Source of the DNA: Escherichia phage DCP2
DNA length: 64,000 bases
Strand: one strand, 5' to 3'
Sequence record: OR780565.1
Positions 21,702-22,645 of the stretch are shown piece by piece. The notes below the pieces were generated by a model. That model worked only from the letters and a program-made list of their open reading frames with translations, was not told where the DNA came from and ran no database searches. The number at the start of each line of letters is the position of its first letter. Within the stretch, counting starts at the first letter, position 1. Position numbers and translations under genes: made by a program.

Positions 21702-21788
21702 GCGAGAATGGTCAAATTGGTAAAGGCACAGCACTTAAAATGCTGCGGAATGATTTCCTTGTGGGTTCGAGTCCCACTTCTCGCACCA
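21702..21788 (+). tRNA. tRNA-Leu (anticodon TAA), CCA encoded
   Basis: Acceptor GCGAGAA/TTCTCGC, anticodon loop CTTAAAA, long variable arm, T-arm GGTTCGAGTCC. Confidence 0.85.
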
Positions 21789-21793
21789 AATTT

Positions 21794-21866
21794 GCGGATA
21801 TCGTATAATGGCATTACCTCAGACTTCCAATCTGATGATGTGAGTTCGATTCTCATTATCCGCTCC
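21794..21866 (+). tRNA. tRNA-Gly (anticodon TCC)
   Basis: Acceptor GCGGATA/TATCCGC, anticodon loop CTTCCAA, T-arm GTTCGATTC. Confidence 0.85.
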
Positions 21867-21876
21867 AATTTAATTT

Positions 21877-21950
21877 ACTCCGTGTAGCTCAGTTTGGTAG
21901 AGCGCCTGATTTGGGATCAGGAGGTCCAAGGTTCAAATCCTTGTATGGAG
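21877..21950 (+). tRNA. tRNA-Pro (anticodon TGG)
   Basis: Anticodon stem-loop CCTGA-TTTGGGA-TCAGG, T-arm GGTTCAAATCC. Confidence 0.8.
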
Positions 21951-21952
21951 AC

Positions 21953-22043
21953 TGGAGGCGTGGCAGAGTGGTTTAATGCACCGGTCTTGAAAACCGGCAG
22001 TCGCTCCGGCGACTCATAGGTTCAAATCCTATCGCCTCCGCCA
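21953..22043 (+). tRNA. tRNA-Ser (anticodon TGA), CCA encoded
   Basis: Anticodon stem-loop CCGGT-CTTGAAA-ACCGG, long variable arm, T-arm GGTTCAAATCC. Confidence 0.85.
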
Positions 22044-22048
22044 GTTTT

Positions 22049-22124
22049 GCTGATTTAGCTCAGTAGGTAGAGCAACTCACTTGTAATGAGAAGGTCGGCG
22101 GTTCGATTCCGTCAATCAGCACCA
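22049..22124 (+). tRNA. tRNA-Thr (anticodon TGT), CCA encoded
   Basis: Acceptor GCTGATT/AATCAGC, anticodon loop CTTGTAA, T-arm GGTTCGATTCC. Confidence 0.85.
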
Positions 22125-22125
22125 A

Positions 22126-22200
22126 GGCCCTGTAGCTGGAAGGTTCAAGCAAGCGACTCATAATCGCCAGATGGTGGTTCAATTCCACCCAGGGCCACCA
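22126..22200 (+). tRNA. tRNA with anticodon CAT (Ile by analogy with T4, or Met), CCA encoded
   Basis: Acceptor GGCCCTG/CAGGGCC, anticodon loop CTCATAA, T-arm GGTTCAATTCC. Confidence 0.8.
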
Positions 22201-22209
22201 AATTAATTT

Positions 22210-22296
22210 GGGGAGTTATCCCGTAGAGGTAGCGGTGTGGACTGTAAATCCATTGTCATTGCGACTCGGGTGGTTCGACTCCACCACTCCCCACCA
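22210..22296 (+). tRNA. tRNA-Tyr (anticodon GTA), CCA encoded
   Basis: Acceptor GGGGAGT/ACTCCCC, anticodon loop CTGTAAA, long variable arm, T-arm GGTTCGACTCC. Confidence 0.8.
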
Positions 22297-22300
22297 ATTT

Positions 22301-22375
22301 GGATGTGTAGCTCAATGGCAGAGCGATCGCCTGTTAAGCGATTGGTTATAGGTTCGAATCCTATCACGTCCGCCA
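22301..22375 (+). tRNA. tRNA-Asn (anticodon GTT), CCA encoded
   Basis: Anticodon stem-loop TCGC-CTGTTAA-GCGA, T-arm GGTTCGAATCC. Confidence 0.85.
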
Positions 22376-22489
22376 AATTTGTGACAACTGTCACATTAAT
22401 ATCTACTTGACGCGATTATAGGGGTTGAACTGATCACTCTTCTCTTAATTTCGTGTGAAGACATCTTGATTGTTGGAGTAGGTATTAAT

Positions 22490-22565
22490 GTGGCCGTAGT
22501 TCAGTTGGTAGAACTCGAGATTGTGATTCTCGTAGTCATGGGTTCGACTCCCATCGGTCACCCCA
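22490..22565 (+). tRNA. tRNA-His (anticodon GTG), CCA encoded
   Basis: Extra 5' G pairing with discriminator C, anticodon stem-loop CGAGA-TTGTGAT-TCTCG, T-arm GGTTCGACTCC. Confidence 0.8.
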
Positions 22566-22569
22566 ATTA

Positions 22570-22645
22570 CGGGGCATAGCTCAGAAGGAAGAGCAAGGAC
22601 CTTCTAAGTCCTAGGTCGTAGGTTCGATCCCTACTGCCTCGACCA
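22570..22645 (+). tRNA. tRNA-Arg (anticodon TCT), CCA encoded
   Basis: Anticodon stem-loop GGAC-CTTCTAA-GTCC, T-arm GGTTCGATCCC. Confidence 0.85.

Follow-up and report, generated by a model that had tools for sequence, protein, structure and literature searches.

The transfer RNA (tRNA) genes of coliphage T4 lie in a single cluster in the order Gln, Leu, Gly, Pro, Ser, Thr, Ile, segB, Arg, rnaD and rnaC, with a middle promoter just upstream and transcription stopping after the gene for the species I RNA (PMC2330249); the biological role of rnaC and rnaD is unknown (PMC3014915). The corresponding region of phages T2L (EMBL AJ880101), RB1 and RB3 has no segB and shows the order 'Met'(CAT), Tyr, Asn, Arg and trna.2 (PMC2330249). 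SegB cuts preferentially in a 27-bp site inside the T2L tRNA-Asn gene, and in crosses the T4 cassette overwrites the T2L cassette by SegB homing (Brok-Volchanskaya et al. 2008, PMC2330249). The tRNA-Tyr of a further relative, T6, has been detected and tested by experiment (PMC13096335). Here we describe the tRNA array of Escherichia phage DCP2, which occupies positions 21702-22645 on the plus strand of a 64,000-nt stretch of its genome (record OR780565.1; hereafter the window, to which all coordinates refer). The array shares the T2L gene order given above. We propose, with a probability of roughly 0.8, that it belongs to a T2-type Tequatrovirus operon in which an array of 11 tRNAs would have been eroded and overwritten by free-standing homing-endonuclease genes, and whose tRNAs would serve decoding and, in the case of tRNA-Tyr, defence.

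ARAGORN, run on the whole 64-kb window, called exactly ten tRNA genes in the array, with the anticodons taa, tcc, tgg, tga, tgt, cat, gta, gtt, gtg and tct in that order, and an independent search with the Rfam model RF00005 placed all ten above its gathering score. Both by covariance score and by cloverleaf these are canonical tRNAs. Nine of them scored 59-74 bits (E 1e-10 to 1e-14); tRNA-Tyr, which has a long variable arm, was for this reason marginal at 30.3 bits against a cut-off of 29, and it reached 35.4 bits with the tRNA-Sec model; this gene was called by ARAGORN and is identical to T6 tRNA-Tyr at 86 of 87 positions. The two programs thus agree in number, anticodons, order and coordinates with an earlier note on this DNA, which had been made from the letters alone and had named as its own check that scanners might reject some of the tRNAs or find a tRNA-Gln that it had missed: none was rejected, and neither program found a tRNA-Gln anywhere in the 64-kb window. 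The set of eight that the note had given for T4 (Gln, Leu, Gly, Pro, Ser, Thr, Ile, Arg) is that of the T4 annotation. The 3' CCA is encoded in nine of the ten genes, tRNA-Pro being the exception, which bears out the note's "most"; in T4 four of the eight (Gln, Pro, Ser, Ile) lack it, and going by the genes the phage should rely less on the host CCA-adding enzyme than T4 does. At the 3' end of tRNA-Ser (22041-22043), CCA stands where T4 has TAA after the discriminator. The intergenic spacers measure 1-10 nt (tRNA-Pro and tRNA-Ser, 1 nt apart, have the Pro-Ser dimer arrangement), with the sole exception of a 114-nt gap between tRNA-Asn and tRNA-His.

The 1.8 kb around the array are 99.7% identical to Escherichia phage a51, a Tequatrovirus, and 97-99% identical to other members of that genus, including ACG-C40, slur03/14, UTI-E4 and KarlGJung; in the a51 record (OQ067376) an HNH endonuclease and, after it, these ten tRNAs are already annotated, the tRNAs with tags within tRNA_1 to tRNA_19. 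Compared with T4 by BLAST, the window departs from homology twice. The second of these breaks spans 22146-23013, where T4 has the rest of its tRNA-Ile, segB and tRNA-Arg, and the window has the rest of a different CAT tRNA, tRNA-Tyr, tRNA-Asn, the 114-nt gap, tRNA-His, a different tRNA-Arg and an open reading frame (ORF) of 116 codons, ORF116. In T2 the genes run Met(CAT), Tyr, Asn and Arg, and the same trna.2 ORF follows. Five primers designed on T2L match the window exactly, among them #5 in the CAT tRNA, #6 at 22299-22319 in tRNA-Asn and #7 in tRNA-Arg, and two match with one mismatch, including #24 in ORF116; the tRNA-Asn gene carries the T-loop motif GTTCSAWTY at 22352. A BLAST search with the T4 region found no segB homology in the window. 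Judged by position, gene order, the near-identity of the T2L-specific genes and the absence of segB, the locus is a T2L-type Tequatrovirus tRNA operon.

The T2-type cassette is widespread. Counting by BLAST coverage rather than by curated layouts, as in all database counts given here, a cassette of the window type is present at a coverage of at least 80% in 248 phage records and the T4 Ile-segB-Arg cassette in 126, and two sister genera, Jiaodavirus and Karamvirus, likewise carry related tRNAs for Tyr, Asn and His. T4 lacks tRNA-Tyr and tRNA-Asn because its Ile-segB-Arg cassette takes the place of the T2-type cassette. Since both tRNAs are found in the T2L cassette, in relatives and in sister genera, and in view of the SegB crosses, the most economical reading is that T4 represents one depleted state of the array. 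The earlier note was right that this phage differs from T4 in having no tRNA-Gln and in carrying Tyr, Asn and His in addition, and its direction for Tyr and Asn, which it took as gained, finds no support; of the three, only tRNA-His, together with the sequence preceding it, behaves like an added module, being absent from T2 and PhiZZ30.

The other break in T4 homology runs from 21080, 7 nt into tRNA-Gln, to 21699, just 5' of tRNA-Leu, and the 618 nt between the two breakpoints hold an ORF for an HNH protein. An alignment with phage ZN18 gives the same junctions, nucleotides 8 to about 71 of tRNA-Gln being replaced by the HNH gene; the window is the only sequence in which they were determined to the nucleotide. 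A CxxC...DHIDGN...CPNCH motif, of the HNH (beta-beta-alpha-metal) nuclease type, is visible in the translation of the HNH gene, and its match to the Pfam HNH model is sub-threshold (17.3 bits against a cut-off of 21.4). In T5-like and other phages, distantly related proteins (29-52%) carry the annotation of homing endonuclease. The gene is found in 63 phage records, always at 95% identity or more, and an intact Gln-Leu junction in 448. For instance, ZN18 and YUEEL01 have no HNH gene and carry 11 tRNAs, namely Gln and the ten described here, the shared ones being 99-100% identical to those of the window except for the tRNA-Pro of YUEEL01 (85%). Sporadic presence at one locus, among collinear relatives and in near-identical copies, is the pattern by which homing-endonuclease genes are recognised, and the HNH gene bears the signature of a free-standing gene of this kind that overwrote tRNA-Gln, with homing itself inferred. 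Lying 3' of the putative middle promoter, it would probably be expressed from the tRNA precursor transcript, like T4 segB. On the evidence of the junctions, the loss of tRNA-Gln is a replacement by a mobile element and not tuning.

The earlier note had proposed adaptive tuning for the whole set, with tRNA-Gln lost and the tRNAs for Tyr, Asn and His gained to match the codon usage of the phage. As references for E. coli we took 45 long ORFs from 50 kb of the K-12 genome and, second, a K-12 codon table; the codons of the phage were counted over the 69 long ORFs found in the window, 16,592 codons in all (Table 1). Only Lys is more over-used than Tyr and Asn, which rank second and third among the amino acids, with TAT and AAT both enriched, and the other seven tRNAs apart from tRNA-His read codons enriched 1.4- to 6.6-fold. 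Demand therefore fits most of the array, tRNA-Tyr and tRNA-Asn included, and to this extent the proposed match to codon usage stands; it explains neither the presence of tRNA-His, whose amino acid is under-used (0.84-fold), nor the absence of tRNA-Gln, whose codon CAA is itself enriched. Moreover, the loss of tRNA-Gln coincides to the nucleotide with the HNH insertion, and near-identical phages of the same codon usage, such as ZN18 and YUEEL01, retain it, both of which speak against an adaptive loss. tRNA-Tyr and tRNA-Asn, for their part, are the common state in relatives and outgroups and are removed by SegB homing (PMC2330249). As the origin of this tRNA set, tuning is improbable.

Replacements at other points of the array are seen in several relatives. 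An ORF stands in place of tRNA-Thr in both OE5505 (2292-2774 of its compared locus) and T2 (5711-6112), PhiZZ30 has 660 nt at the position of tRNA-Pro (1647-2307), and the Enterobacter phage ZX13, a Karamvirus, carries a homing-endonuclease gene directly after tRNA-His (1730-2344). With at least six layouts among close relatives, each with an ORF or a homing-endonuclease gene replacing a tRNA, the array might be regarded as a selfish or neutral mosaic whose tRNAs are dispensable passengers of the last homing-endonuclease cassette to sweep. The T4 tRNA region is indeed non-essential (PMC2330249), and the identity of at least 95% among all 63 carriers of the HNH gene is as expected for a recent sweep. 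The strong conservation of the tRNAs themselves speaks against mere passengers, at 96-100% identity within Tequatrovirus and 99% across genera for tRNA-His, as do the codons they read, which are exactly those enriched in the phage, and the demonstrated phenotype of tRNA-Tyr (PMC13096335). We thus regard this explanation as unlikely.

That phenotype concerns host defences that cleave tRNA. The Septu system EcB88 cuts the variable arm of both the host and the T6 tRNA-Tyr; plating is restored when T6 tRNA-Tyr is over-expressed or is amplified by a SegB-driven route, deletion of the T6 tRNA region increases sensitivity, and T4, which has no tRNA-Tyr, is strongly restricted whereas T2 is resistant (Chihara et al. 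2026, PMC13096335). tRNA-Tyr is also the target of retron-Eco7, which the tRNA-Tyr of T5 counteracts (PMC11555353). By analogy with the nearly identical T6 gene, the tRNA-Tyr of the window would most likely buffer the phage against host defences that cut tRNA-Tyr, such as Septu and retron-Eco7; having no segB, the phage would lack the SegB-driven amplification route of T6. The idea that phage tRNAs replace host tRNAs cleaved during infection, also raised in the earlier note, has support for tRNA-Tyr alone, and this from published work.

A broader version of this idea is that Tyr, Asn and His are all kept mainly as spares for host tRNAs destroyed by anti-phage nucleases. The rescue by tRNA-Tyr, with T4 sensitive and T2 resistant, and the near-identity of the window gene to that of T6 would agree with it, as would tRNA-His, which is kept without extra codon demand and is 99% identical between genera (Jiaodavirus, Karamvirus), compared with 80-92% for the other shared tRNAs. 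Tyr, Asn and His have G34-U35 anticodons, which together with that of Asp make up the queuosine group cut by colicin E5; a bearing of this on the phage tRNAs would be a lead and not a result. The anticodon loops of all three are identical to those of the host, which rules out evasion mutations of the kind described in PMC10264068, and for Asn and His any benefit would therefore be one of dosage. The same applies to Tyr, since Septu also cuts the T6 tRNA-Tyr (PMC13096335). No defence targeting tRNA-Asn or tRNA-His is described in the defence papers cited here. As the main reason for the three tRNAs, defence is a possibility that we hold to be rather unlikely.

The preferred explanation combines replacement with decoding. 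At the start there would have been up to 11 tRNAs in the array (Gln, Leu, Gly, Pro, Ser, Thr, Ile2, Tyr, Asn, His and Arg), and free-standing homing-endonuclease genes would have removed different members in different lineages. In the window phage the HNH gene would have replaced tRNA-Gln; in T6 segB, a GIY-YIG gene whose product cuts inside tRNA-Asn, would have replaced that tRNA; in T4 segB would have replaced tRNA-Tyr and tRNA-Asn together with the neighbouring Ile2 and Arg genes; and in T2 and OE5505 another ORF would have replaced tRNA-Thr. Most of the tRNAs that remain would supply decoding for the AGA, AUA, GGA, UCA, ACA, UUA, Tyr and Asn codons that an AT-rich phage over-uses. Observed directly are the genes and how closely they match those of T2L and T6, the junctions at which replacement took place, the spread of the layouts over phages and the codon statistics; what the explanation presumes is that promoter and terminator are used, that the HNH protein homes, and what tRNA-Asn and tRNA-His do in vivo.

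Several points weigh against this explanation. The precedence of 11 tRNAs would follow from distribution, presence in outgroups and one set of published crosses. The block of leader and tRNA-His is absent from T2 and PhiZZ30 and has another context in sister genera, so that tRNA-His may have been gained in this lineage. The cleavage site and homing of the HNH protein are predicted only. The T4 tRNA region is dispensable in the laboratory, and any translational benefit is thus conditional (PMC2330249). With His codons at the low level given above, and with a tRNA-His that lacks the G at position -1 (G-1; see below), a simple supply role for this tRNA is doubtful. Finally, the E. coli codon reference consists of 45 ORFs from one 50-kb region and a K-12 codon table.

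The 114-nt gap between tRNA-Asn and tRNA-His folds better than shuffled sequence (minimum free energy -32.7 kcal/mol, z = -4.36). It contains a structured leader of tRNA-His whose branched interior is enclosed by a 14-bp helix (22395-22408 with 22476-22489), the last base of which is position -1 of the tRNA. Such a leader was found always directly 5' of tRNA-His, in Tequatrovirus, Jiaodavirus, Karamvirus and a 249-kb Enterobacter phage; its 14 distinct variants have at least six unrelated interiors of 63-79 nt, and the helix keeps 13-14 of its 14 pairs. In the nine distinct helix variants pairing holds for 98.4% of cells and compensatory double changes affect four pairs; the covariation score was reached by none of 500 column shuffles, and slid controls paired at only 40-56%. 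The frequency of G-U pairs in the helix places the constraint on the RNA of this strand. Six full-length variants were also analysed, and a covariance model built from six variants detected the leader only 5' of tRNA-His, in the window and ten other loci; no Rfam family matches it. A pattern scan of IMG/VR with the conserved interior gave four loci only, a scan with the 5' half of tRNA-His being more productive.

Between tRNA-Asn and the leader stands a perfect palindrome. The 3' acceptor strand of tRNA-His (GUCAC) is repeated in the 3' half of the palindrome, which in a joint fold pairs with nucleotides 1-5 of that tRNA, lengthening the leader helix; the palindrome is present in the Tequatrovirus and Karamvirus versions only. 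In its core the half-sites equal those of the CRP consensus, TGTGA-N6-TCACA. Inspection by eye yielded no -10 element at a suitable distance, and a sigma-70 consensus scan gave no plus-strand promoter site in the gap. Two other identities for the gap were rejected. It is neither a paralogue of rnaC or rnaD nor a repeat, the covariance model having matched only upstream of tRNA-His, and it hides no tRNA-Gln or degenerate tRNA, for ARAGORN and a permissive Rfam search (E <= 5) found none in 22376-22489; the 'tRNA-Gln' label on Klebsiella-phage matches belongs to the neighbouring upstream gene.

The tRNA-His itself is unusual. G-1 paired with C73 is the major histidine identity element and is gene-encoded in most bacteria (PMC9976931). 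In the window C73 and the GUG anticodon are present, and position -1 (22489) is T rather than the bacterial G. All 17 related phage contexts examined (Tequatrovirus, Jiaodavirus, Karamvirus, Angelvirus and others) also have T at -1, including an Aeromonas Angelvirus with a different leader and a contig in which tRNA-His follows another tRNA after a single T; G is encoded at -1 in E. coli hisR and in an Arthrobacter phage tRNA-His. In T2 and PhiZZ30, where leader and tRNA-His are both absent, tRNA-Asn adjoins tRNA-Arg. Where present, the two form a 190-nt block, which in the sister genera stands in a Gln-His-Ser context. Literature searches returned no relevant description of a phage tRNA-His without G-1 or of the leader. 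The helix could act as a processing signal, belong to a small RNA that is released in the manner of rnaC and rnaD, or be left over from an exchange of cassettes. We tentatively suggest, at rather less than even odds, that the 95-nt leader is an undescribed RNA module of T4-like phages, coupled across at least four genera to a U-1 tRNA-His. The leader helix may direct an unusual 5' maturation (for example a cut by RNase III or RNase P that leaves a -1 nucleotide), or the leader may be released as a small RNA with lineage-specific cargo; in both cases the tRNA-His would be matured, charged or used non-canonically, possibly as a decoy.

The remaining tRNA of ambiguous name is the CAT tRNA, which the scanners label as Met. 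Its best E. coli matches include CAT genes annotated by PGAP as tRNA-Ile, at 81.6% identity over the full length (5,424 of 5,426 complete genomes), and its anticodon arm, GCGACTCATAATCGC, is identical to that of E. coli tRNA-Ile(CAT), with six of the seven acceptor pairs in agreement. C4-G69 and C5-G68, which we take to be determinants of TilS, are both present. On this likeness an initiator or elongator Met tRNA was rejected, and the match and the identical anticodon arm make the gene an Ile2-type tRNA (one expected to carry lysidine and to read AUA) of another lineage than T4 tRNA-Ile, to which it is 61% identical. The best E. coli match (strain WP5-S17-ESBL-10) is part of a compact cluster of tRNA-Ile(CAT), tRNA-Arg(TCG) and tRNA-Arg(TCT) at 201-450 of the compared locus; this resembles the ileZ-argN-argO cluster of Shiga-toxin prophages, and the closest bacterial relative may thus be prophage-borne.

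The region from 20980 to 23355 appears to form one operon (Table 1), with use of the promoter and terminator inferred from their sequence. The flanking genes match those of the T4 cluster, with gene 1, 57A, 57B, ipI and trna.2-4 upstream and e.8 to e.5 downstream. The putative middle promoter, in a region homologous to the T4 sequence just 5' of tRNA-Gln, consists of a MotA box TGCTTTA (20980-20986), a 12-nt spacer and a -10 element TATTAT (20999-21004). Between it and the tRNA-Gln stump, a GC-rich stem-loop GGCTCT-TTCCTG-AGAGCC (21040-21065), kept with changes in ZN18, may match the RNase III processing site reported 5' of T4 tRNA-Gln. Downstream of the array, ORF116 is 95% identical to its T2 counterpart; for this ORF and the flanking small ORFs there is no Pfam match, and their PHROGs are families of unknown function only. 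The homologues of rnaD and rnaC follow. T2 rnaD is of the window type (99%), and an rnaC-like sequence (87%) is present in Karamvirus ZX13. The terminator-like hairpin (23322-23345) has a stem of 10 bp with 7 GC pairs, followed by TTTTTGG. No known ribozyme or riboswitch was matched by Rfam in the operon.

Table 1. Features of the tRNA operon of phage DCP2, with the use of the codons or amino acids concerned relative to E. coli (both references)
Feature	Position	Strand	Basis and identity	Use relative to E. coli
Putative MotA-dependent middle promoter	20980..21004	+	Read from sequence, T4-homologous region	
tRNA-Gln stump, first 7 nt TGGGAAT	21074..21080	+	Alignment with ZN18, T4	CAA 1.3-1.5x (lost tRNA)
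Free-standing HNH endonuclease gene, 202 aa	21087..21695	+	PHROG 14736 'HNH endonuclease', E 5e-124	
tRNA-Leu (UAA), CCA encoded	21702..21788	+	ARAGORN, Rfam; 100% identical to T4	TTA 2.0-2.2x
tRNA-Gly (UCC), CCA encoded	21794..21867	+	ARAGORN, Rfam; 98.6% identical to T4	GGA 2.5-2.8x
tRNA-Pro (UGG), without CCA	21878..21952	+	ARAGORN, Rfam; 100% identical to T4	CCA 1.4-1.5x
tRNA-Ser (UGA), CCA encoded	21954..22043	+	ARAGORN, Rfam; 87-nt body 100% identical to T4	TCA 2.8-3.2x
tRNA-Thr (UGU), CCA encoded	22049..22124	+	ARAGORN, Rfam; 96% identical to T4	ACA 2.2-2.6x
CAT tRNA, Ile2 type	22126..22200	+	ARAGORN, Rfam; T2L-type, not T4 tRNA-Ile lineage	ATA 3.2-3.4x
tRNA-Tyr (GUA), long variable arm, CCA encoded	22210..22296	+	ARAGORN, Rfam	Tyr 1.48x; TAT 2.0-2.2x
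tRNA-Asn (GUU), CCA encoded	22301..22375	+	ARAGORN, Rfam; 100% identical to T2	Asn 1.46x; AAT 2.3-2.7x
Perfect palindrome TGTGAC-AACT-GTCACA	22380..22395	+	Sequence, folds	
Structured leader of tRNA-His, 95 nt	22395..22489	+	Fold, covariation	
tRNA-His (GUG), C73 and CCA encoded, T at -1	22490..22565	+	ARAGORN, Rfam	His 0.84x (under-used); CAT 1.0-1.1x, CAC 0.4x
tRNA-Arg (UCU), T2L-type isoacceptor	22570..22645	+	ARAGORN, Rfam; 50% identical to T4	AGA 5.6-6.6x (most enriched codon)
ORF116, 116 aa, T2L trna.2 equivalent	22664..23014	+	PHROG 3355 (unknown function), E 8e-53	
rnaD homologue (species 2 stable RNA)	23014..23126	+	79% identical to T4 rnaD	
rnaC homologue (species 1 stable RNA)	23133..23271	+	99.3% identical to T4 rnaC	
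Terminator-like hairpin and T-run	23322..23355	+	Consensus scan	

The array as such is already known: dozens of public genomes carry its annotation, the T2L version appeared in print in 2008, and the action of tRNA-Tyr against Septu followed in 2026. The locus offers a worked example of how differences between tRNA sets that resemble codon tuning can be scars of homing endonucleases, of the HNH gene here and of SegB in T4 and T6. For tRNA biologists, the leader with its tRNA-His is the single feature that may merit attention: a tRNA-His family without the near-universal G-1 and with a conserved helix 5' of it raises the question of how it is processed and charged in E. coli, or whether it does non-translational work.

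Set against the known systems, the locus shares with T4 its genomic position, the flanks 57B, ipI, trna.2-4 and e.8, the upstream promoter region, and the Leu, Gly, Pro, Ser and Thr tRNAs at 96-100% identity. T4 differs in having tRNA-Gln and segB, in lacking tRNA-Tyr, tRNA-Asn, the leader, tRNA-His and ORF116, and in its tRNA-Ile and tRNA-Arg, which are of other lineages (61% and 50% identical to the window genes). The leader resembles T4 rnaC and rnaD as a structured non-tRNA RNA within a tRNA transcript, from which tRNA-processing enzymes would release it; unlike them, it is tied to tRNA-His and has a hypervariable interior, and it shares with them no sequence or covariance-model similarity. 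T6 has nearly the same tRNA-Tyr in the same operon, whereas its segB follows directly after tRNA-Tyr, it lacks tRNA-Pro, tRNA-Ser and tRNA-Asn, and its tRNA-Ile is of the T4 type. T2 has tRNA-Gln in place of the HNH gene and the ORF trna.1 in place of tRNA-Thr, and the leader and tRNA-His are absent. In a51, ACG-C40, slur03/14, UTI-E4 and KarlGJung the same ten tRNAs and the HNH gene are annotated, and the window phage differs from them in nothing of substance.

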